A DNA stretch of 64,000 nucleotides from Candidatus Bathyarchaeota archaeon (GCA_018396775.1 JAGTRF010000004.1:16214-80213), one strand, 5' to 3'. Shown: positions 10,463-61,271, counted from the first letter of the stretch. Notes: generated by a model from the sequence alone, not told the origin. Translations and numbers: made by a program.

Positions 10463-11347
10463 ATGACTCAATCAATCTTTTGCGTTGGAAATTTAGCTAA
10501 GCAAGAGTTTATTGTTAATGGTGAACCAAAAAATTTTATTTCTGGTTCAGCAGCTTTCGCTGCTTTATCAGCAAAAACTACTAGCGAGGAAGTTTTATTG
10601 ATTTCTTCAATTGGAAGAGATTTTTCTCAAGCCTGGCTTAACTTAATAGTTGAAAAAGGAGTTAAGTTGAAGCTGAAAATAGTTGAAGATAAACCTTCCA
10701 TATTCTTTAAATATTTAAATGAAGAGTTGATTGGAAAAAACATTAGTTTCCACGTAAAAAATTTACCATTTTTACTGAAGGATGCCTTAAATGAAGCTCA
10801 ACCAAATTTGGTTTATATCGCGCCTAATAGCTTTAAAATTCAAAAAACTCTTTTAAAATATGCTAAATCAACAAAAGCTATGATCGCTTTAGGCGTTCAT
10901 GAATTTGATTTAAAAAATATGAAATCTCCTAAAAAGATTTTAAATTTAATAAATCATGTAAATCTTTTATTTTTAAACGATTCTGAAGCTAAATTGATAA
11001 CTGAAGCCTACTCTTTTTTCGAGGCGATAGAAGTTTTAAAGCTTTATTCTATTAATAAAGTTATAGCGGTTACTATGGGGAGAATGGGGGTTCTTCTCAT
11101 TTATAATGGTGAGACAATTCATGTTCCAGCTTTTGTGATAAATGAAGTTGACTCTATAGGAGCTGGAGACTCTTTTGCTGGAGCTTTCTCAGCTAAATAT
11201 TTAATTTGCAAAAATGTTATTGATGCATGTAAATATGGATGTTTAATAAGTAGTTTAATTGTAGGAGATTTTGGGTTAAATGCTTTACTTAATTTAACCA
11301 AAAATAAAGTTGAAAGGTTAATTAAGGAAAAAGAGTTTATTGTTTAG
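10463..11347 (+). CDS. PfkB-family carbohydrate/nucleoside kinase
   Basis: C-terminal GAGDSFAGAF motif and an N-terminal GG dipeptide region. Its 3' end overlaps the convergent hmgA stop by 4 nt. Confidence 0.7.
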   Translation: MTQSIFCVGNLAKQEFIVNGEPKNFISGSAAFAALSAKTTSEEVLLISSIGRDFSQAWLNLIVEKGVKLKLKIVEDKPSIFFKYLNEELIGKNISFHVKNLPFLLKDALNEAQPNLVYIAPNSFKIQKTLLKYAKSTKAMIALGVHEFDLKNMKSPKKILNLINHVNLLFLNDSEAKLITEAYSFFEAIEVLKLYSINKVIAVTMGRMGVLLIYNGETIHVPAFVINEVDSIGAGDSFAGAFSAKYLICKNVIDACKYGCLISSLIVGDFGLNALLNLTKNKVERLIKEKEFIV

Positions 11348-19775: not shown

Positions 19776-20246
19776 CTACTTGCCTCCCGCTTGCCTCGCT
19801 ACCAACGCTTTCTTTTTAACTCCAACAGCTATCCCCTTTCTTCCGGTAGTCCTTGTCTTTTGTCCTCTAACCTTTAATCCTAAAGCATGTCTTACGCCTT
19901 TCCAGCATTTTATGCTTTTCATCAACTCTACATTCATTTTCTCTTTTAACTCTAAATCTGAGCTTATTAAATGCATATCTTTACCTGTAGTAAGTTCTTT
20001 TCTTTGATTGAAAAACCATGCTGGAATATTATGTTTTGCTGGGTTATTGATGACGTCTTCTATTTGAGCTACTTGCTCTCCAGTTAACTCGCCGATTTTA
20101 AGATTTGGGTTAAGCTTTATCATGTTGACTATAGCGTTAGCGAAGCTTACGCCTATGCCTTTAATTTTTGCAAGCCCGTATACTATCTTTTTGCCTCCAT
20201 CAATATCTGTTCCAGCAATTCTAACTATATGCTGATACTCTTTCAA
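19776..20246 (-). CDS. rps13: ribosomal protein S13
   Basis: IVRIAGTDIDGGKKIVYGLAKIKGIG...VRGQKTRTTGRKG. Confidence 0.9.
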   Translation of the reverse strand: MKEYQHIVRIAGTDIDGGKKIVYGLAKIKGIGVSFANAIVNMIKLNPNLKIGELTGEQVAQIEDVINNPAKHNIPAWFFNQRKELTTGKDMHLISSDLELKEKMNVELMKSIKCWKGVRHALGLKVRGQKTRTTGRKGIAVGVKKKALVARQAGGK

Positions 20247-20391
20247 GTTTCATCAACCAAATTAAATCTTACTTCAAAATAATCTAAAAATAGTTGCTTA
20301 AAAATTGTTCGATTTATTTAGTAAAACAAAAGTTATGGCTTAATTTAAGCGCAACTAAAACCGACATTATTTACTTGATTTTATAGGTTTT

Positions 20392-20509
20392 TGGCGCCGG
20401 GAGTGGGATTTGAACCCACGAGGCCTCAAAAAGGCCACAGGCTTTCGAGCCTAGATCTCCAGGCTTAGGCTTTTTTAAACTGCCCCGTACCAGGCTCGGG
20501 AATCCCGGC
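20392..20509 (-). tRNA. type-II tRNA (Ser-like, long variable arm), 118 nt with CCA encoded. Holds ~28-30 extra nt in the anticodon arm, a candidate non-canonical intron. Anticodon is ambiguous (possibly CGA)
   Basis: Reverse complement: GCCGGGA-TT-CCCG-AGCCTGGTA-CGGG-G-CAG[TTTAAAAAAGCCTAAGCCTGGAGATCTAG]GCTCGAAAGCCTG-TGGCCTTTTTGAGGCC-TCGTGGGTTCAAATCCCAC-TCCCGGC-G-CCA. Acceptor, T-arm and 3' anticodon-stem half are identical to the tRNA at 36541. Confidence 0.7.
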
Positions 20510-20557
20510 TCATAAAAATAGTAATTAATAGAGAAATTTAAGTTTTTAATAACACCA

Positions 20558-21564
20558 TTATTTCTTCCATAGTTTTGGATAGGTTCCAGGAGGCATTATA
20601 ACCCTTTTAATTTCAACAGCTAATCCTTTATTTAACTCTAAAATTTGCTCTGTTGAAAGCAAAGCATTACCTAAAGCTACAACCTCATTTTTTAAAGTGA
20701 AAATAGCTACTATTTGTTTTGGTTGAATATTGGATTCTATCCTTACTATTCCTGGAACTGCTAAATAAGCTCCATGGCATATAGCGTCAACAGCCGAATC
20801 TTTTATGTAAATTTTCGGAATATACTCGAAACATTCTTCAATTGGGCGAATAATCTTTCTTAATTTTTCCTCGCCTCCAAAATTTTTATATTCAATTGCA
20901 GCTTCGAAAACTTCATGAAGAGTATGAATTTTTTCGTTTTCAGTGAAGGGCCCTGTTCTAATTCTTCTAAGCTCTTTCATATGAGCCCCAACACCTAACG
21001 CTTCACCTACATCAAAACAAAGTTTCCGTATATAGGTTCCTGCTTGACAAGAAACTTTAAATAAAACTCTTCTCTCTTCAACTTCAAGTAGCTTAATATT
21101 GTAAATTCTTCGCTTCCTAACTTCTCGTTTAACTGAAGCTCTTAAAGGTGGTTTTTGATATATTTCTCCAGTAAACTCTTTTAAAGCGTTAACGATTTTT
21201 TCTTCTGTCACATTACTATGTAATTGCATTAAGCATATGTATTCTTTACCGGAGTGAAGAAAAACCTGTAAAGCTTTTGTAGCATCCTCTAAAGCTATTG
21301 GAAGCACGCCAGTTACTTTTGGGTTTCCTCAGCTTAAGCTTCTAAGGTCCCGCCGTGACCAGCGCGCTTCACATCTAATATTTTTTTCACCCAAGCTGTA
21401 ACTTCATGGCTTGAGGGCCCTGGTGGTTTATCTAAATTTATTGCTCCAAAATTTATATAGTTTTGCATCGATCTATTTTCAGGGAGACAACCATATTTAA
21501 AATCTGTTTCACACTCTTCCTTCACTATAATTTCTCTTTTCAACATCCATGGCGGAATCTCCAT
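20558..21564 (-). CDS. cbf5: tRNA/rRNA pseudouridine-55 synthase Cbf5 (TruB family, PUA domain). The reading frame is interrupted by a 17-nt insert at the catalytic GTLD|PKVTG motif
   Basis: ORF track shows an N-terminal piece (21334..21564, ...LDKPPGPSSHEVTAWVKKILDVKRAGHGGTLEA*) and a C-terminal piece (20558..21307, GTG start). Conserved coding actually resumes at 21322 (PKVTGVLPIALEDA...) in another frame. Confidence 0.8.
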
Positions 21565-33396: not shown

Positions 33397-34503
33397 ATGG
33401 GTTCAAATGAATATCTTAAATTAAAGGATTTAGATAAATTTGGAATGTTAAACTTTATAGAGAAAGCTCCAGATTATTTACGTTTAACTTTAAATTTAAT
33501 TAAAAGTGGAGAAGTAAACTGGAGTAAAAACCTTGAGAATTTAGAGGGTTTAAAGGTAGAGAACGTTTTAATCTCTGGGCTTGGCGGCTCAGCTATAAGC
33601 GGGGACATAATTGTTGATTGGATTTGGGAAAAAAGCTCCATTCCAATAATAGTTAACAGAGATTATAAATTACCTCAATTTGCTGGAGAAAAAACTGTCG
33701 TTATAACGGTTAGCTATTCTGGAAATACATTTGAAACTTTAAATCAATTTTATGAAGCTTATAAAAGAAAGTGTATTTTATTCAGCGTTTCTTCTGGAGG
33801 AAAATTGATGAAAGCTTCTGAAAGGCTTAAGATTCCTTTTTTAAAAGTTAAAGAAAGTCTTCCACCTCGTGCAGCTTTACCATGCCTGCTTCCAGCTGTA
33901 ACATATATTTTATCAAAGTTTGAGCATTCAATTTTGATTTCTGAATTGGAAGCGGCGGCAAATAAGATGGATGAGGTGAAAAAAGAGGTTGGATTCCATC
34001 GTAAAGTTGAAGAGAATCCAGCTAAAAAAATGGCTTTAAACATTATTGGAAAATATCCAGTAATATATGCTTTTGCAAATATGGGAAGCGTTGCTAGAAG
34101 GATAAAAGATCAAATTAATGAAAATAGCAAGGTTTCAGCTAAATTTGATTTTTTACCTGAAGCATGTCATAATGAAATTGAGGGAACATTTTTTCCGGTG
34201 AAAGAAAACCTTTGCTTTCTATTTATTGAGCCTCAAGAAAAAATTGAAAAAGTTATAAGCGAGGAATTTAAAAAAGTTTTAAGAGAGAATGGCTTCATTA
34301 ATATTTATGATATTCCAGTGAAAGGAGAAACTAAAATAGAGAAGATTCTTACATCAATTTATTTCGGGGATTTTACTTCATTTTACTTATCTTTAGCATA
34401 TAATGTTGACCCAACAGTTACGAAGAATATTCAAAAATATAAAAATGGAGTAAGCGAAGAAGCTTCAAAATTAATTAATTATTTTGAAAGCCTTATCCTT
34501 TAG
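33397..34503 (+). CDS. bifunctional phosphoglucose/phosphomannose isomerase (SIS-domain, archaeal PGI/PMI family)
   Basis: VLISGLGGSAISGDII...VITVSYSGNTFETL SIS motifs; 368 aa. Confidence 0.7.
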   Translation: MGSNEYLKLKDLDKFGMLNFIEKAPDYLRLTLNLIKSGEVNWSKNLENLEGLKVENVLISGLGGSAISGDIIVDWIWEKSSIPIIVNRDYKLPQFAGEKTVVITVSYSGNTFETLNQFYEAYKRKCILFSVSSGGKLMKASERLKIPFLKVKESLPPRAALPCLLPAVTYILSKFEHSILISELEAAANKMDEVKKEVGFHRKVEENPAKKMALNIIGKYPVIYAFANMGSVARRIKDQINENSKVSAKFDFLPEACHNEIEGTFFPVKENLCFLFIEPQEKIEKVISEEFKKVLRENGFINIYDIPVKGETKIEKILTSIYFGDFTSFYLSLAYNVDPTVTKNIQKYKNGVSEEASKLINYFESLIL

Positions 34504-35959
34504 TTACACCTAATGGAACTAATCTAGCTACTTTAAAGGCCACTCCAACCTTATGGCTTACTTCAGCCACTCTATCTACATCTTTATAAGCGTCAGGGGC
34601 CTCCTCGCTTACAACAGCTATGCTAGCTGCTCTAATTAATATTCCTTGATTTTCAAGTTTTTGCTTAACTTCGCTTCCCCAAAACCTTTTTTTAGCTGCA
34701 GCTCTGCTTAAAACTCTTCCAGCACCATGCGCAGTTGAGCCAAAACTAACTTCCATAGCTTTTTTAGAGCCAACTAAAACCCAAGAGCTTGTTCCCATGC
34801 TTCCTGGAATAATAACTGGTTGACCTATGCTTCTATATTTTGCTGGCACATCTTTATGCTCCGGAGGAAAAGCTCTTGTTGCACCTTTTCTATGAACACA
34901 AACAATTCTTCTTTTTCCATTAACAACATGCTCTTCCTTTTTAGCTATGTTATGAGCAACATCATATACTAAATGCATTCCTAAAGACTCAGCTGATCTA
35001 TTGAAAATTTTTTCAAAAGCTTGTCTAGTCCAATGCGTTATCATTTGCCTATTAGCCCAAGCAAAATTACATGCAGCTGCCATAGCAGGTAAATAATCTT
35101 CAGCTTCAGGGCTTTTTATTGGAGCGCAAGCCAATTCTCTATCTGGAAGCTTTATATCATATTTTTTAACAGCTCTCTCCATAACCTTTAAGTAATCATC
35201 GCATATTTGATGACCGAAACCTCTACTACCTGTGTGAACTAAAACCATGATTTGCCCTTCTTCCTCAATTCCAAAACTTTTAGCTATATTTTTGTTAAAA
35301 ATTTTATCCACAACCTCCACTTCTAAAAAATGGTTTCCACTTCCTAAGCTTCCAAGCTGAGGGTAACCTCTACTCTTAGCTATAGAGCTGACTTTACTTG
35401 GATTAGCGCTGCTCATGCATCCATTTTCCTCGCAGTTTTCAGCATCTTCAGGCCAACCGTAACCCGCATCTATAGCCCAATTAACGCCTTCAGAAGCTAC
35501 TTTATCAAGCTCTGAAAGAGCAACCCTTAATTTTCCCCTGCTTCCTAATCCTGAAGGAATATAATTAAATAATACATCAAGCAGCTTTGGTAAAACAGGT
35601 TTAACATCATTAATTCTTAAGTTAGTTCTTATAAGTCGAACTCCACAATTTATATCGTAACCCACTCCACCAGGGCTTACAACGCCCTCTTCATAATCTG
35701 TAGCTGCCACTCCACCTATTGGAAAACCATACCCTTCATGGCCATCAGGTAAAGTAATAGACCATTTATAAATTCCCGGTAAATGAGCTACATTAGCGCA
35801 CTGCTCAATCGTTAAATCCCCCTTCATTTTTTCAAGCAAAACTTCATCGCTATAAATTCTTCCTGGAACCCGCATTCCAGACTTATAAGAAGTTGGAATC
35901 TCCCAAATACATTCATCCAGCTTTATTAACGGAACATGCTCAGAGCTTCTTCCAGACAT
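34493..35959 (-). CDS. rtcB: RNA-splicing ligase RtcB (tRNA exon ligase)
   Basis: ...NVAHLPGI...PDGHEGYGFPIGGV...DINCGVRL...HTGSRGFGHQ...GSTAHGAGR; 488 aa, no intein. Confidence 0.9.
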   Translation of the reverse strand: MSGRSSEHVPLIKLDECIWEIPTSYKSGMRVPGRIYSDEVLLEKMKGDLTIEQCANVAHLPGIYKWSITLPDGHEGYGFPIGGVAATDYEEGVVSPGGVGYDINCGVRLIRTNLRINDVKPVLPKLLDVLFNYIPSGLGSRGKLRVALSELDKVASEGVNWAIDAGYGWPEDAENCEENGCMSSANPSKVSSIAKSRGYPQLGSLGSGNHFLEVEVVDKIFNKNIAKSFGIEEEGQIMVLVHTGSRGFGHQICDDYLKVMERAVKKYDIKLPDRELACAPIKSPEAEDYLPAMAAACNFAWANRQMITHWTRQAFEKIFNRSAESLGMHLVYDVAHNIAKKEEHVVNGKRRIVCVHRKGATRAFPPEHKDVPAKYRSIGQPVIIPGSMGTSSWVLVGSKKAMEVSFGSTAHGAGRVLSRAAAKKRFWGSEVKQKLENQGILIRAASIAVVSEEAPDAYKDVDRVAEVSHKVGVAFKVARLVPLGVTKG

Positions 35960-36023: not shown

Positions 36024-36458
36024 TTATAAATCCAAAATAAACTTTGCTATAAATTTACCCGACTCTTGAGAAATACTCATCTTATGGTAAGTTACTGCTT
36101 TAACCTCTGTTTTAGATAAATGCTTATTTTTATCAAATGCTTCCCCAAAAACTTCAGCCTCTAAATAAAATAAATTATTTACCTGCGTTATTTTTTTAAC
36201 GTTAAAAATCGAGTAAAGCTTTAATTCTATTTCAAACTTTAAGAGTAAAGCTTCAAGCCAATTATGAAGAAGCACTATTTCATCTTCTCCTTCAACTTTA
36301 ATTTCATCCCTCAATTGAGGTTCAATTAATTTTGTATCCGTCATAACTTCGAACATAGCTAATCCAGCATTACTAAAAGCTTCTTCTAAGCTTTCACCAT
36401 AAGCAGCTATATAAGCGTCGCCCACATGCTCTAAAAACTCAAATTTTTTATCAACCAT
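36024..36458 (-). CDS. archease (RtcB activator)
   Basis: 144 aa; FEFLEHVGDAYIAAYGESLEEAFSNAGLAMFEVMTD; sits immediately downstream of rtcB. Confidence 0.8.
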   Translation of the reverse strand: MVDKKFEFLEHVGDAYIAAYGESLEEAFSNAGLAMFEVMTDTKLIEPQLRDEIKVEGEDEIVLLHNWLEALLLKFEIELKLYSIFNVKKITQVNNLFYLEAEVFGEAFDKNKHLSKTEVKAVTYHKMSISQESGKFIAKFILDL

Positions 36459-36540: not shown

Positions 36541-36664
36541 GCCGGGATGGCCGAGTGGACTAACCTTAAGAAGGGTTTAAAGGCGCAGGCCTTGAGTTAA
36601 GTAAGACAGGACAGCCTGTGGCCCTTTCAGGGCCTCGTGGGTTCAAATCCCACTCCCGGCGCCA
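36541..36664 (+). tRNA. tRNA-Ser(UGA)-like type-II tRNA, 124 nt with CCA encoded and two candidate introns: 18 nt in the D-loop and 16 nt at canonical position 37/38
   Basis: GCCGGGA-TG-GCC-GAGTGGACTAA[CCTTAAGAAGGGTTTAAA]GGC-G-CAGGC-CTTGAG[TTAAGTAAGACAGGAC]A-GCCTG-TGGCCCTTTCAGGGCC-TCGTGGGTTCAAATCCCAC-TCCCGGC-G-CCA. Confidence 0.7.
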
Positions 36665-44771: not shown

Positions 44772-44813
44772 CTGCTTATAATGCAAATCTCCCTTAAAAA
44801 TTGCATATACTGA

Positions 44814-44887
44814 AGCCCCGGGCGGGCTTCGAACCCGCGACCTGCGGCTTACGAGGCCGCCGCTCTACCAGGCTAAGCCACCGGGGC
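44814..44887 (-). tRNA. tRNA-Thr(CGU), 74 nt, no intron, CCA not encoded
   Basis: Reverse complement: GCCCCGG-TG-GCTT-AGCCTGGTAGAGC-GGCGG-CCTCGTAA-GCCGC-AGGTC-GCGGG-TTCGAAG-CCCGC-CCGGGGC-T. Very GC-rich stems. Confidence 0.85.
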
Positions 44888-44937
44888 TTAATTTTAAATT
44901 AAAGTTTAATTAAAGCGTTTAAAGAGGATGCTTAAAT

Positions 44938-45936
44938 TTGTTTACAGCTGAAAATTTAGGGGAGAGAGAAATTATAAAGCTTTTTCTTAAATTTTTTATT
45001 TCATCCCCTTCAGAGTTAAAGTTTTTTAATGAAGATGTAGCTTTAGTTAAATTGCCTAGGGGTAAAGCAGTTGTTTTAAAGTGCGATATGCTTGTTTCAT
45101 CTACAGATGTCCCGCCTGGAATGAGTTTTAAGCAAGTTGGTAGAAAAGCTGTTGTTTCAACAGTTAGTGATTTCGCTGCTAAAGGCGTTAAACCTTTAGC
45201 GCTTTTAGTTTCTGTAGGATTGCCTAAACATATGCTTAAAAATGAGTTGAAGCAATTAGCTTTAGGTTTAGCTTCTGGAGCTAAAGAATATAATGTTAAA
45301 ATCATTGGCGGCGATACGAATGAATCCAAAGAATTAATAATTGATTGTATTGGTTATGGATTATGTAATGAAAAAAATTTATTTTTTAGATGGGGCGCTA
45401 AACCGGGGGATATTTTAGCTTCAACTGGAGAGTTTGGAGCAGCTTCAGCTGGGCTTAAAATAGCTTTAAACAGTTTTAAAGCTTCAAAAAGTTTGAGGCG
45501 AAAATTGCTTAAATCAGTTTATATGCCTAAAGCTCATTTAAAAGAGGGGTTAGCATTATCTAAAGTTAAAGCAGCAACAGCTTCTATTGATTCAAGCGAT
45601 GGATTAGCTTGGTCTCTTTTCGAGCTTTCTAAAATGAGTAAGGTAGGCTTTATTATAAAAAATTTACCTATCTCAAAAGAGGTTTTAATGCTTGCTAAAT
45701 TAAATAAGTTGAATCCTATTAAGCTAGCACTTTACGGTGGAGAAGAATTCAATTTAATTTTAACTATAAGGCGGGATAAATGGAGTAAAGCTTTAAAGGC
45801 TGTAAAAGCGGTTGGAGGAGAGCTTTATTTTTTAGGTGAAGTTGTTAAAGAAAAAAAGCTTGTTTTAAGCTTAAAGGATAGGGGAGAAGAGAAAATTAAG
45901 CCTTTAGGTTGGGAGCATTTAAAAAAGAAGTGGTAA
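44938..45936 (+). CDS. thiL: thiamine-monophosphate kinase-like protein (PurM/AIR-synthase-related superfamily)
   Basis: GEREIIKLF...FNEDVALVKLP...KCDMLVSSTDV...VSDFAAKGVKPLALLVSVGLP...GGDTNES follows the ThiL/PurM pattern. Confidence 0.55.
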   Translation: MFTAENLGEREIIKLFLKFFISSPSELKFFNEDVALVKLPRGKAVVLKCDMLVSSTDVPPGMSFKQVGRKAVVSTVSDFAAKGVKPLALLVSVGLPKHMLKNELKQLALGLASGAKEYNVKIIGGDTNESKELIIDCIGYGLCNEKNLFFRWGAKPGDILASTGEFGAASAGLKIALNSFKASKSLRRKLLKSVYMPKAHLKEGLALSKVKAATASIDSSDGLAWSLFELSKMSKVGFIIKNLPISKEVLMLAKLNKLNPIKLALYGGEEFNLILTIRRDKWSKALKAVKAVGGELYFLGEVVKEKKLVLSLKDRGEEKIKPLGWEHLKKKW

Positions 45937-56905: not shown

Positions 56906-57933
56906 GAAGATTTAGAGATAGAGATTATATTAAAACTTTTGATGAGTTATATTTTACAGTTTTAGGAAATACACATCCAAAAGATAAAGTTATAGCTTAT
57001 TTAAAATATGCGCCATCGAAAAAAGGTATTTGGGGTAAATATCCTCACCTTTATGATAGACCAATTAAGGAATATACGATTCATAACATTAAAAAAATGA
57101 TGAATTTCTTAAAAAAGAATTACCCGCATTATATTCATAAAATTTTTAATATAGATTTCTCAGCTGTACCATGCGAAAGCATAATGACTCATTATAAACC
57201 TGAAGAAAAACTTCAACAATTAATAAAATTAAATGTTAAAGATGAGCTCCAAAAGAAAGTTGTTGAGTTAGCTTTAACTTTATCTAAAGAGAGTAAAGTA
57301 GAGATTAAAGATTTTGGGGTAACAGGTTCTATACTAATTGATTTACATAAATTGAATTTTTCTGATATAGATTTGACAGTTTATGGAAAAGAAAACAGTT
57401 TAGCTGTTAAAAAAGCTTTAAAGAACATTTACTCTAAAGAAGGTGAAATTCAAAAGTTTTCTATTAAAGATTTTGAAGAATGGTATAAAATAAAAGGACG
57501 CCTTTACCCATTAACGCTTAAAGAAGCTTTAACTCTTTTTGAGAAAGCTTGGAATAAAGGAAAATTTAAAGAAACACCTTTTTCAATTCACCCTATTAAA
57601 ATTGAAAGCGAGATTAAAGAAGATTACTATAAAAGACAGTATTTTCCAATATCTTTAGTTGCAGGTAAAGCAAAAATTATTGATGCAAGCGAATCAATTT
57701 TTATGCCTGGGAAATACAAAGTTGAATGCAAATTAAAGAGAGAAGTGAAAGTAAATGAAATTGTAACTTTCGAAGGGTTTTATGCTGGAGTAGCTGAAGA
57801 AGGAGAAGAAATTTTATTTAAAGGAAAATTAGAAAAAGTGGAAGATAAAAACAAAAATGAAAGTTACTTTAGAATCGTTGTAGGTTCGCTTGAAGCTAAA
57901 GGAGAAGATTACATAAAGATTGTTAAGGATTAG
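56902..57933 (+). CDS. uncharacterised pol-beta-type nucleotidyltransferase-motif protein (paralogue B)
   Basis: YFTVLGNTHPKDKVIAYLKYAPSK; KDFGVTGSILIDLHKLNFSDIDLTVYG; ESIFMPGKYKV...EIVTFEGFY...GKLEKV...YFRIVVG. Confidence 0.6.
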   Translation: MRRFRDRDYIKTFDELYFTVLGNTHPKDKVIAYLKYAPSKKGIWGKYPHLYDRPIKEYTIHNIKKMMNFLKKNYPHYIHKIFNIDFSAVPCESIMTHYKPEEKLQQLIKLNVKDELQKKVVELALTLSKESKVEIKDFGVTGSILIDLHKLNFSDIDLTVYGKENSLAVKKALKNIYSKEGEIQKFSIKDFEEWYKIKGRLYPLTLKEALTLFEKAWNKGKFKETPFSIHPIKIESEIKEDYYKRQYFPISLVAGKAKIIDASESIFMPGKYKVECKLKREVKVNEIVTFEGFYAGVAEEGEEILFKGKLEKVEDKNKNESYFRIVVGSLEAKGEDYIKIVKD

Positions 57934-58831
57934 ATTCTAAAGCTTCTTTTAAGTTTATTTGAATAGGGCCCAATTTTCCACCAAAGTTAACTGCACTTAT
58001 TTTTTTAACTCCTTTAACCTGAGCTGCAGCTTTAATTCCAGCAGCGGTAGCTTTCTTTACAATTTTTGTTGTAACACCATTAAACACTATTTCGTAAACG
58101 CTGTTAACGCCTTCAGGAACTTTACTATCTTCAATTAAGCTTTTTAAAGCTGGACAGTAAGGATGATTTGTTGAAGCTGGAAGCTTATATTTTCTAGCAC
58201 CAACCTTAGATCCGGACCTGCATATTCCACCTGGAAAAGGAAGAATTACACCCTCAATCTTTTGAATAGCTTCAACAGCTTTTTCAGCAGCTTCTAAAGC
58301 AGCCTTCCTATTTTCAGCCATTATAAGAAAATTTCCTCCAGCTGCACATCTTCTAACCCCAAACCTATCTTCTATAATAAATTCGCCCTCCATCACTGGA
58401 ATTCTCCAAATTTTTCTTTCAGCTAAAACATCACTTTTTTCAAACCCATCTCCAAACAGTTTAATTGCTCTACCCACCTTCAATCTTTTTTTAGCTAAAG
58501 GCATAGCATCAAAAGCAGCTGTGGTTGGGCAAGTTAATACGCATTGACCTAACCTGCTTATCAATTGAAGCTTTAAAGCGCTTCCAAACCTATGGTAAAC
58601 TTGAATATAAACTCCCGGCCTGTTATCTGGAGTTTCATTTGGTGAAGCTATAGGCCCTTCAAACCCTGCTTCAGCTGGAGACATAATTATAGATGAAGCG
58701 AAGCCTGTAGCGGTTTTAGCAGCTGTTAAAGCCCACTTCTCGTTTTCAGCTGTAATTAAAACTCTTGAAGCCCACATTGGAAAAGCTTCAGCAAAATCAT
58801 TATCATCAATCTCCACTTCCCCAATTTTCAT
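57923..58831 (-). CDS. ftr: formylmethanofuran:tetrahydromethanopterin N-formyltransferase
   Basis: MKIGEVEIDDNDFAEAFPMWASRVLITAENEKWALTAAKTATGFASSIIMSPAEAGFE...; 302 aa, collinear with Ftr proteins. Confidence 0.85.
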   Translation of the reverse strand: MKIGEVEIDDNDFAEAFPMWASRVLITAENEKWALTAAKTATGFASSIIMSPAEAGFEGPIASPNETPDNRPGVYIQVYHRFGSALKLQLISRLGQCVLTCPTTAAFDAMPLAKKRLKVGRAIKLFGDGFEKSDVLAERKIWRIPVMEGEFIIEDRFGVRRCAAGGNFLIMAENRKAALEAAEKAVEAIQKIEGVILPFPGGICRSGSKVGARKYKLPASTNHPYCPALKSLIEDSKVPEGVNSVYEIVFNGVTTKIVKKATAAGIKAAAQVKGVKKISAVNFGGKLGPIQINLKEALESNP

Positions 58832-58881
58832 TTAAATCACCTTAACCCTTTTAATTATTCTTTAATTCTAAATTTAAAATT

Positions 58882-59940
58882 TTAGCTAATTGTTTTAAGG
58901 GTTTGCTCATAATATCTTTTACCATAAGTTAAAACAAGCTGGTAAAGCTTTTCTCTATTACTTAATTTAACAAGCTCTAGATTTCCCTCTGCATAAATTT
59001 TATCTCCCTCTTTAGCTTGCATTCTAAATTCTTCAATATAGGAAACTATAGCGTCAATTCTAGAAACTTTAAAACCTTTAATTTCTTTAGCTTCAATCCA
59101 ATAAATAGAAGGCATAAAAATTGATTCCGACTCATTAATAACTTTTCCAATAACTGATACCCATCCCAACTTCTTAATTTTTAAAGGGTAAATCTGTTGA
59201 TTAACAATTTCTTTATCGCTTTTAACAGGTTCAAACTCTACTTTTATTTTTCTATTAAAGCTTTTATCAATTAAAACACCGTAAACTAATTTTCTTTTTT
59301 GATGGGCGAAAAACTCTTTTAAGGAAAGCTTTTTAAATCTCCACTTTTCTTTAAATGGTAAAACTTCAAATTCATTAGCCATAAAGCTTTTTTCATTATA
59401 AAATTCTTTTAACACATCTTTTAACTCAAGCAACTGTTTCCTACCATAAATGATGAAATCTAAATCAGAGTAGCTTGGATGATAAAAATCATGAAGAATT
59501 GAACCGAAAACTCCAAAATCATTAATTGAAAGTTTTGAGCGATTTAAAATTTCTGAAATAACTTTGAAAAGAGCCCTTATTAATTCATTATTTTTCTCGC
59601 TGTAAAAAACAGTTTTTAATTTTTCTTCAGGAAACTTAATTTGAGAAATCTGGTTTTTCTTTAAACCAATTAAGTTAAATTTTAAATGTGGGTGCTTCAC
59701 TTTATATTGAGGAAACTTCTTTTCAATAAATAATATTCCTTCATGCTCATAAAATTTGTAATATTTTTCGCCTTGAAACCCCTCTCTAAAAGCTTTAGAG
59801 TTTTTAGAATTAAATATTTTTAAAGGCGCGTATTCAGCGTCGCAAATAAAACCATTCACTGGATGCGTATACCCTAAAACCCTAAATATTATTCCCTCTT
59901 TAGAAGTTAACGCATCTCTATCTTTAATAATATTTCTCAT
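58882..59940 (-). CDS. uncharacterised pol-beta-type nucleotidyltransferase-motif protein (paralogue C, opposite strand)
   Basis: IFRVLGYTHPVNGFICDAEYAPLK; NDFGVFGSILHDFYHPSYSDLDFIIYG; ESIFMPSIYWI...AIVSYIEEF...GNLELV...YQLVLTYG. Confidence 0.6.
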   Translation of the reverse strand: MRNIIKDRDALTSKEGIIFRVLGYTHPVNGFICDAEYAPLKIFNSKNSKAFREGFQGEKYYKFYEHEGILFIEKKFPQYKVKHPHLKFNLIGLKKNQISQIKFPEEKLKTVFYSEKNNELIRALFKVISEILNRSKLSINDFGVFGSILHDFYHPSYSDLDFIIYGRKQLLELKDVLKEFYNEKSFMANEFEVLPFKEKWRFKKLSLKEFFAHQKRKLVYGVLIDKSFNRKIKVEFEPVKSDKEIVNQQIYPLKIKKLGWVSVIGKVINESESIFMPSIYWIEAKEIKGFKVSRIDAIVSYIEEFRMQAKEGDKIYAEGNLELVKLSNREKLYQLVLTYGKRYYEQTLKTIS

Positions 59941-60028
59941 TATTAACTCAACCTAAACGCTTAAATACTTTTAAACTTGATTTAAAATTATTTTTGATTT
60001 TTAAAAGATTTAATTATTTAAAAAAAAG

Positions 60029-60871
60029 GTGATTTTAGTTTTGGCAGTTAAAATTGGGTTTATAAAGCTTGGAAATATAGGTTCAGCGCCTTTAATAGAG
60101 TTTCTTTTAGATGAAAGAGCTGAAAGAGAAGATTTAAATGTAAGAGTTGTAAGCTCAGGCGCGAAATTAACTGTTGAAGAAGCAGCTGAAGCAGCTGAAA
60201 AACTTCTTGAATTTAAACCTGATTTAGCTATTGTGGTTAGCCCAAACGCTTCTTTACCTGGACCTGAAAAGGCTAGAGAAATTCTTAGCAAAGCAGGGAT
60301 TCCAGTTTTAGTTGTTTCAGATGGCCCAGCTAAAAAAGCTGTAAAAAAGCTTGAGGAAGGGGGTTTTGGATATTTAATAATTGAAGGTGATCCAATGATT
60401 GGTGCTAGAAGAGAATTTTTAGATCCAATAGAAATGGCTTTATTTAATGCTGAAGTTATCAAGGTTTTAGCCGGGTCAGGAGTTTTCAATATTTTATTTG
60501 CTGAAATCGATAAAATTATAGAAAGCTTAAAAAAGAGAGAAAAGCCTCAGCTTCCAAAAAGAATTATTGATAGCGAAGCAGCTGTTGAAGCTGCTGAATT
60601 TCAAAATCCATATGCTAAAGCTAAAGCTCAAGCAGCTTATGAAGCTGCTAAAAAAGTTGCTGAAATAAATGTTCAAGCTTGCTTTATAATTAAAGATTGG
60701 CAAAAATACACAACTTTAGCTGCTTCAGCTCATGAATTAATTAGGGAAGCTGCTAAATTAATTGATGCAGCTAGAGAAATAGAGAAAACAAGCGATTCAG
60801 TAATTAGGCATCCGCATTATGATGATGGAAAAATTTTATCTAAAAGGCGTTTAATAGAAAAGCCTAGGTGA
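60029..60871 (+). CDS. mtd: F420-dependent methylene-tetrahydromethanopterin dehydrogenase
   Basis: VKIGFIKLGNIGSAPLIEFLLDERAEREDLNVRVVSSGAKL...VSPNASLPGPEKAREILSKAGIPVLVVSDGPA...GDPMIGARREFLDP is collinear with Mtd. Confidence 0.85.
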   Translation: MILVLAVKIGFIKLGNIGSAPLIEFLLDERAEREDLNVRVVSSGAKLTVEEAAEAAEKLLEFKPDLAIVVSPNASLPGPEKAREILSKAGIPVLVVSDGPAKKAVKKLEEGGFGYLIIEGDPMIGARREFLDPIEMALFNAEVIKVLAGSGVFNILFAEIDKIIESLKKREKPQLPKRIIDSEAAVEAAEFQNPYAKAKAQAAYEAAKKVAEINVQACFIIKDWQKYTTLAASAHELIREAAKLIDAAREIEKTSDSVIRHPHYDDGKILSKRRLIEKPR

Positions 60872-60881
60872 AACTTTAGCG

Positions 60882-61271
60882 ATGAAAGTTAAGCTTATAA
60901 CTGGAAGAAGCTTGCAGCAAGGCGTAGGGAAGGAAACTGGAAAATTTTCTATAGAATATTTTAATAATGTAGCCATATGCGAGCTTGATCCAAGCGATAT
61001 GGAAACCTTAAATATATCGCCAGGAGAAAACGTTGTGGTGAAAACAAAATTCGGCGAAGTTATTTTAAAAGCTGTTAAATCTATGCAAGCTCCTCATAAA
61101 GGTGTAATTTTTATTCCTTACGGTCCCTGGGCTAATTTAGTTACGGATCCTGAAACTCATGGAAGCGGAATGCCAAATTTTAAAGGAATTGAAGCTGAAG
61201 TTTCTCCAGCAAAAGAGGAAAAAATCTTAACTTTAAAAGAAGTTTTAGAAAAAATTTCTGGAGGAAAATGA
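60882..61271 (+). CDS. fwdD: formylmethanofuran dehydrogenase subunit D (molybdopterin dinucleotide-binding domain)
   Basis: MKVKLITGRSLQQG...PYGPWANLV...; 129 aa. Confidence 0.8.
   Translation: MKVKLITGRSLQQGVGKETGKFSIEYFNNVAICELDPSDMETLNISPGENVVVKTKFGEVILKAVKSMQAPHKGVIFIPYGPWANLVTDPETHGSGMPNFKGIEAEVSPAKEEKILTLKEVLEKISGGK

Follow-up and report, generated by a model that had tools for sequence, protein, structure and literature searches.

Sequence evidence for a tRNA-Ser(GGA) gene with two closely spaced BHB-type introns in a Bathyarchaeia-like archaeon

The tRNA-Ser(GGA) gene and its two introns

The minus strand at positions 20392 to 20509 of the window (the whole stretch of DNA that was analysed, 64,000 nucleotides) in all probability carries a functional tRNA-Ser(GGA) gene with two introns of the BHB (bulge-helix-bulge) type that lie 8 nt apart. 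We assign this reading a probability of about 0.9, and we infer from the sequence that the gene is expressed. The precursor is 118 nt long and the spliced form 90 nt, with the CCA end encoded at 20392-20394. The mature 90-nt tRNA would decode UCC and UCU.

A sequence-only reading of the window had recognized a tRNA-like gene at this locus, and the gene is indeed real: it occupies 118 nt of the minus strand and coincides with a GC-rich island. The GC content of 20392-20509 is 62-67%, against 32% for the window, and the window contains only three such islands (62-75%), the other two being at 36541-36664 and 44812-44888. The last of these is an intron-free tRNA-Thr(CGU), which was the sole tRNA in the window found by ARAGORN with default settings and by Rfam at gathering thresholds; the disrupted genes were missed. 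Relaxed ARAGORN settings also returned an intron-containing tRNA-Leu(tag) (11099-11201, plus strand) and an intron-containing tRNA-Lys(ttt) (45173-45315, plus strand), which we rejected as probable false positives that lie in no GC island. The failure of the standard tools (ARAGORN default, Rfam tRNA) at 20392 could be taken to indicate a decaying pseudogene, in which insertions have broken the anticodon arm so that no mature tRNA is made. The failure is uninformative, however, because the paralogue at 36541 is equally missed by the default tools.

The gene can be divided into five parts, all on the minus strand. Exon 1 (20480-20509) holds the 5' strand of the acceptor stem, the D-arm, G26 and C27-A28-G29. 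It is followed by intron 1, a non-canonical 29/30 intron of 15 nt (UUUAAAAAAGCCUAA, 20465-20479), which was identified by BHB enumeration, by comparison with relatives and by RNAalifold. A micro-exon of 8 nt (GCCUGGAG, 20457-20464) then supplies G30-C31-C32-U33-G34-G35-A36-G37, including the anticodon GGA (20458-20460), and is followed by intron 2, a canonical 37/38 intron of 13 nt (AUCUAGGCUCGAA, 20444-20456) of the relaxed bulge-helix-loop type. Exon 3 (20392-20443) contains A38, GCCUG, the long variable arm, the T-arm, the 3' strand of the acceptor stem, G73 and CCA. In the sense orientation the precursor reads GCCGGGAUUCCCGAGCCUGGUACGGGGCAG / UUUAAAAAAGCCUAA / GCCUGGAG / AUCUAGGCUCGAA / AGCCUG UGGCCUUUUUGAGGCCUC GUGGGUUCAAAUCCCAC UCCCGGC G CCA.

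ARAGORN, run without its intron option, called the doubly spliced 90-nt product tRNA-Ser(gga). The spliced anticodon arm, CAGGC-CUGGAGA-GCCUG, has a 5-bp stem and a 7-nt loop with U33 and a purine at position 37. Archaeal SerRS depends on the variable arm and on G73, and the gene shows the class II Ser features: a variable arm (UGGCCUUUUUGAGGCCUC) with a 5-bp stem, G73 and the anticodon GGA. The class II Ser identity proposed earlier is right, and the tRNA body is almost the same as that of the Ser-UGA paralogue. The acceptor, D, variable and T arms are all perfect and the CCA is retained, which argues against a pseudogene. As had also been noticed, the gene at 36541 has exactly the same acceptor stem (GCCGGGA/TCCCGGC), T-arm (GTGGG-TTCAAAT-CCCAC) and 3' half of the anticodon stem (GCCTG); we found that it shares the discriminator G and the CCA as well. 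The gene is flanked by cbf5 on one side and by an rps13-rps4-rpoD-L18e-L13 cluster on the other.

Introns were located with our own BHB scorer, which models an outer helix (h), a central helix (H) of 4 bp, bulges of 3 nt with the cut following nucleotide 2, and an inner helix (h'). In the canonical BHB the central helix includes the first two anticodon nucleotides, and the geometry of the scorer agrees with this (PMC4090602). In a positive control, both introns of the gene at 36541 were recovered. At 20392-20509, the enumeration of BHB solutions left the 15-nt intron (t1[30:45]), with all four pairs of H, as the only stem-interrupting solution that gave a sensible product. In this motif G24-C27 (GGGC) pairs with GCCU, the bulges are AG/U and AA/G (cut at the slash), and the inner helix is formed by the 2 bp of UU with AA. 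The motif is of the HBh'-like relaxed type and not of the strict hBHBh' type. It is among the most degenerate in its family, with an h' of only 2 bp and no contiguous outer helix. The string CAG-TTTAAAAAAGCCTAAGCCTGGAGATCTAGGC-TCGAAA-GCCTG, on which the sequence-only reading was built, is literally present, and a non-canonical intron does begin at 29/30, since the 5' half of the anticodon stem is broken right after C27-A28-G29. The further claim that the intron does not occupy the canonical site holds for intron 1 but not for the gene as a whole, because 37/38 is used too, in both Ser genes.

Removal of intron 1 joins CAG to GC and gives CAGGC-CUGGAG-(AUCUAGGCUCGAA)-A-GCCUG, a regular anticodon arm interrupted at 37/38 by an intron. 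The outer helix of intron 2 is the anticodon stem itself, which has 5-6 bp once intron 1 is removed and 2 bp before. The central helix, CUGG with CUCG, is paired at three of four positions (U33.C is a mismatch), and there is no inner helix. The 3' bulge is AA/A and the 5' site, AG/A, lies within a loop, so that the motif is a bulge-helix-loop and not a strict hBHBh'. Both the mismatched central helix of intron 2 and the minimal 2-bp inner helix of intron 1 are what a pseudogene might show; the comparison with relatives, below, bears on this directly.

The sequence-only reading had instead postulated a single insert of about 28-30 nt within the anticodon stem, which would make the gene a tRNA-Ser(CGA) with the loop CUCGAAA. 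The sequence CUCGAAA does lie directly 5' of GCCUG in the window, ARAGORN with the -i option returns a Ser(cga) whose intron is 28 nt long, and it also accepts the 28-nt-spliced product as Ser(cga). No choice of boundaries, however, gives a proper anticodon arm: removal of 28 nt yields CAGGG-CUCGAAA-GCCUG with a G31.G39 mismatch, removal of 29 nt leaves a 6-nt loop, and the boundaries chosen by ARAGORN give CAGUU/GCCUG with a U.C mismatch. The search for a BHB motif, which the earlier reading had put forward as a check, succeeded for the 15-nt intron, with its complete central helix, and found no 4/4 central helix for any 28-29-nt solution. We rejected the ARAGORN -i calls at both Ser genes because they ignore the BHB motif and leave mismatched stems. 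What had been taken for a single insert is made up of an intron of 15 nt, the micro-exon of 8 nt and a second intron of 13 nt, the real anticodon being GGA and the proposed loop being the 3' end of intron 2. CUCGAAA resembles an anticodon loop because the 3' strand of the intron 2 central helix (CUCG) and the bulge AA/A must complement the real one; CUCG pairs with C32, G34 and G35 of the true loop.

Comparison with relatives

We compared the locus with two sets of relatives. A contig scan with the S13 protein found one close named relative, an uncultured Bathyarchaeia MAG (L001), whose S13 is 86% identical; the taxonomic assignment is based on this single labelled genome. In the anticodon region, the differences between L001 and the window are confined to the two proposed introns, and CUGGAGA is unchanged, whereas the 'anticodon' of the one-intron model shifts from CGA to UGA. 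In addition, one metagenome scan with the shared T-arm and acceptor 3' end yielded 120 loci, 33 of which represent 25 further distinct sequences with the same two-intron architecture. Across this family intron 1 is 12-25 nt long, with all four pairs of H in 24 of 26 sequences and an h' of up to 6 bp, and intron 2 is 11-16 nt long.

In the 25 distinct sequences the exons are nearly or fully invariant, whereas the introns differ in length as well as in sequence, with the motif kept by compensatory changes. In a MAFFT alignment (A1), the exon 1 columns are invariant or nearly so, and G30 and C32-A36 of the micro-exon are invariant in all 25 aligned sequences. In the central helix of intron 2, C32 pairs with G in 25/25, G34 is paired in 25/25 and G35 in 22/25, but U33 in only 1/25. 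The anticodon stem of the two-intron model is 100% paired across the family alignment. The intron 1 motif (H plus h') is paired in 90.8% of alignment cells, a value equalled by none of 500 shuffles, and controls in which the motif was slid reached at most 49%. All four h' pairs of intron 1 vary on both sides, with 21 double-change cells. RNAalifold, which was supplied with no model, predicted H, the 3-nt 5' bulge and h' of intron 1, and it also detected compensatory changes in the stem of the variable arm (columns 87-91 with 97-101). By comparison, the two replacement stem pairs of the one-intron model are 48% paired without covariation, and its C-U-C is not invariant.

We also re-selected the loci by the D-arm alone (n = 32), which avoids circularity. 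The block G[CU]CUGGA[AG] was present in 32 of these 32 loci. The position of the putative CGA loop was loop-like in only 8 of the 32, which would give UGA, CGA or CGU as the anticodon. CCUGUCA was the most frequent sequence at this position (19/32), and CUUGAGA and CUCGUGA also occurred. A single intron would thus place inconsistent anticodons on one Ser body. The comparison with relatives, including the UGA 'anticodon' of L001 next to an invariant CUGGAGA, refutes the single-intron tRNA-Ser(CGA), and we regard it as extremely unlikely.

One could also imagine alternative splicing, in which the precursor gives Ser-GGA if both introns leave and Ser-CGA if the 28-nt segment leaves. The 3' end of intron 2 is loop-like in the window and in a few relatives, and a Ser-CGA gene is absent from the window; but this absence means nothing, as the 64 kb cover only a little of a genome. 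The CGA product would have a mismatched stem and a 3' junction without a BHB motif, and the alternative 'anticodon' is unconserved, even being the non-Ser CGU in L096. Moreover, three other metagenome loci (L031, L072 and L033) have distinct Ser-CGA genes that share this acceptor and T-arm. We consider the chance of such a dual product to be close to nil.

The pseudogene explanation meets the same body of data. Near-invariant exons in 25 sequences, and an intron motif kept through compensatory changes, are not what decay would leave, and more than 30 loci keep the gene next to cbf5. It is very unlikely, in our judgement, that the locus makes no mature tRNA, and the two-intron tRNA-Ser(GGA) is the reading that we retain.

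In a motif-anchored tally of the fetched Ser-GGA loci, the 5' half-stem is interrupted in about 37, and the canonical intron is the only one in 19. The tally is approximate, since it counts L070, which has no intron, as interrupted; the GC content of these loci ranges from 27 to 61%. About two thirds of the fetched Ser-GGA genes with this acceptor and T-arm therefore carry the 29/30 intron. The distribution suggests that this intron is old and has been stably inherited across many lineages, and that it was not acquired recently by one lineage alone. The sequence-only reading had pictured the two Ser genes as duplicates that were later invaded or rearranged at different sites. Their paralogy is borne out and an invasion is not contradicted, but the 29/30 intron, present in some 37 loci, is an old one. 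Sorting all loci by the first intron architecture that matched gave impossible anticodons, and we discarded that result.

Several features of individual loci were noted in passing. The Ser-GGA genes of L059 and L064 have an apparent third intron in the D-loop besides those at 29/30 and 37/38 and, from their sequences, appear to be three-intron genes. Several of the loci with only a 37/38 intron (for example L017, L036 and L041), when looked at by hand, have a canonical intron without a 4/4 central helix. In L041, CUGG and UAUG form two of four pairs, yet the inner helix is a good 4 bp and the bulges are of 3 nt. These lineages may often have relaxed central helices, or the boundaries may differ. 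The adjacency of cbf5 and tRNA-Ser(GGA) is kept in L001 as in the metagenome loci (L001 2-717 compared with window 19776-21564). The rps13 cluster follows the tRNA directly in the window and lies about 2.3 kb further away in L001, with three minus-strand ORFs between.

Precursor folding and the order of splicing

According to the pathway that we propose, the archaeal tRNA-splicing endonuclease would cut the precursor at two motifs, and RtcB with archease would ligate the exons. Formation of the intron 1 motif would need the 3' strand of the D-stem (G24-G25), so that the precursor would not be a cloverleaf at that stage. Intron 1 would be taken out first and its exons joined, and intron 2 would then follow. 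This order is the most likely one in the model, because the outer helix of intron 2 is completed only after removal of intron 1. Closely spaced introns may require sequential removal (PMC8450103). The relaxed motifs would need a broad-specificity endonuclease, either (alpha-beta)2, epsilon2, or an alpha2 enzyme with a specific loop (PMC4090602, PMC4033280, PMC12397907), and we infer that an enzyme of such a type serves this organism. A scan of roughly 40 ORFs of the 64-kb window turned up no EndA domain.

We then considered the predicted folds. In the minimum free energy (MFE) structure of the precursor at 37°C (-54.4 kcal/mol), motif 1 is not formed and the 5' strand of the D-arm pairs with intron 2 over 9 bp; a conformer with the intron 1 central helix costs 4.3 kcal/mol more and is compatible with the 9-bp helix between the D-arm and intron 2. 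In the intermediate, a cloverleaf that includes motif 2 lies 8.5 kcal/mol above the MFE. All of these energies carry limited weight, as they were predicted at 37°C for naked RNA.

The 9-bp complementarity lies between CGAGCCUGG in the 5' strand and loop of the D-arm (20490-20498) and CUAGGCUCG in intron 2 (20446-20454), both on the minus strand. The element AGGCUC(G) of intron 2, which provides the complement to the D-arm, is retained by most of the family although it is not needed by the intron's own splicing motif. Pairing between the D-arm and AGGCUC extends over 7-10 bp in most subfamilies and is absent in L026, L069 and L110. Since AGGCUC is misaligned between subfamilies in alignment A1, column covariation was replaced by per-sequence shuffles. 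Runs of this length were rare in the shuffles, at about 0.002-0.05 per sequence, although the sequences are related and hence not independent. The AGGC core could alternatively pair with three other GCCU copies, and RNAalifold favours a competing outer helix, formed by CCUGG of the D-loop with CCUGG of the micro-exon. One may speculate that the introns cooperate, with AGGCUC(G) of intron 2 sequestering the 5' strand of the D-arm and thereby freeing G24-G25 for the intron 1 helix, as a folding guide that would put 29/30 before 37/38. We hold this idea tentatively and think it rather unlikely.

Companion genes and known systems

The window contains a second disrupted Ser gene, tRNA-Ser(UGA), on the plus strand at 36541-36664, whose spliced product is tRNA-Ser(tga). 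It has a D-loop intron of 18 nt (36563-36580, plus strand), with all four pairs of H and an h' of 4 bp, and a canonical 37/38 intron of 16 nt (36597-36612, plus strand), with an h of 7 bp and a fully paired H (CUUG/CAGG, 4/4). The earlier observation that the two paralogues carry different intron sets is confirmed: a D-loop intron at 36541 and a 29/30 intron at 20392, each accompanied by the canonical one. The 17-nt spliced anticodon arms of Ser-GGA and Ser-UGA are identical except for the wobble nucleotide 34. Two orthologues (L098 and L102) share both introns of tRNA-Ser(UGA) with different lengths. ARAGORN with -i miscalls this gene as His(gtg) with a 41-nt intron.

The tRNA-splicing ligase RtcB is encoded at 34493-35959 on the minus strand (Pfam PF01139, 590.9 bits, full length), and its cofactor archease at 36024-36458, also on the minus strand (Pfam PF01951, 136.1 bits). 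Endonuclease cleavage leaves exon halves that end in a 2',3'-cyclic phosphate and a 5'-OH, and RtcB joins these ends. The RtcB-archease pair divergently adjoins the two-intron tRNA-Ser(UGA) gene.

The cbf5 gene next to tRNA-Ser(GGA), at 20558-21564 on the minus strand, encodes the box H/ACA pseudouridine synthase and consists of two ORFs of 76 and 249 aa. They are separated by a BHB intron of 17 nt (AAGCUUAAGCUGAGGAA, 21341 to 21325, minus strand), with CCUU-AG/A at one side and GAGG-AA/A at the other (cut at the slash) and an h' of 4 bp. Removal of these 17 nt is the sole solution that combines a 4/4 central helix with recovery of the conserved motif GGTLDPKVTG, and it gives a Cbf5 of 329 aa; the intron splits the codon of the catalytic Asp between its first and second letters. 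A BHB intron in the cbf5 pre-mRNA is known at the same site in Crenarchaeota, namely Desulfurococcales and Sulfolobales (PMC2738675). The intron here occupies that site, but its host is Bathyarchaeia-like. The cbf5 gene is split at that residue in 24 of the 32 cbf5-bearing loci of relatives and reads through in the other 8. In 19 of the 24 split loci the scorer found a 4/4 BHB with an intron of 17-29 nt in the same codon phase. The Cbf5 sequences of L048 and L123 read through in one frame with 39 and 24 additional nucleotides, respectively, relative to the query; these extras could represent introns that keep the frame, or insertions close to that site. Presumably, the same endonuclease and ligase act on the cbf5 intron.

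Positions 29/30 and 30/31 are listed among the non-canonical intron sites of archaeal tRNA genes, where an intron can accompany a canonical one, with up to three introns per gene (PMC4090602, PMC4033280, PMC8450103). Pyrobaculum islandicum tRNA-Pro(UGG), for example, has introns at 25/26, 37/38 and 56/57 (Sugahara et al. 2007, 2008; reviewed in PMC4090602). The multi-intron tRNA genes of Crenarchaeota and Thermoproteales resemble the gene described here in that their introns are of the protein-spliced BHB or relaxed-BHB kind. They differ in that the nearest named relative here is a Bathyarchaeia, and in that the intron here is conserved across lineages, unlike the recent burst of introns in Thermoproteales. 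The split tRNA-Ala of Caldivirga maquilingensis is likewise processed by a BHB at 29/30 (PMC4090602), but its halves are trans-spliced from separate loci, whereas both junctions here lie in one transcript, in cis. As with the non-canonical introns that are frequent in Thaumarchaeota, another TACK lineage, for which tRNAscan-SE 2.0 has a clade-specific BHB model (PMC8450103), default finders miss the introns or misannotate them as canonical.

In the papers on archaeal tRNA introns that we consulted there was no Ser-GGA gene with introns at 29/30 and 37/38 and an anticodon-bearing micro-exon of 8 nt, and a literature search on tRNA introns or the endonuclease type of Bathyarchaeota returned nothing specific. 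The layout of the gene is a known one in archaea; the novelty lies in the lineage and in this particular gene. The known splicing mechanism is unchanged by these results. They bear mainly on annotation, where an intron-aware finder that gives CGA for GGA would misstate the decoding capacity of the genome. They also place a stable 29/30 intron in a tRNA-Ser(GGA) outside the classic Thermoproteales, alongside a cbf5 intron at the published crenarchaeal site. Such a distribution is in favour of the idea that many TACK-related archaea have BHB splicing of broad specificity, together with its odd substrates. Finally, genes of the H4MPT methyl branch are present at 57923-61271, namely those for formylmethanofuran:H4MPT formyltransferase (Ftr), methylene-H4MPT dehydrogenase (Mtd) and a molybdopterin-binding subunit; the presence of this pathway agrees with the taxonomic assignment and fits a Bathyarchaeia-like metabolism.
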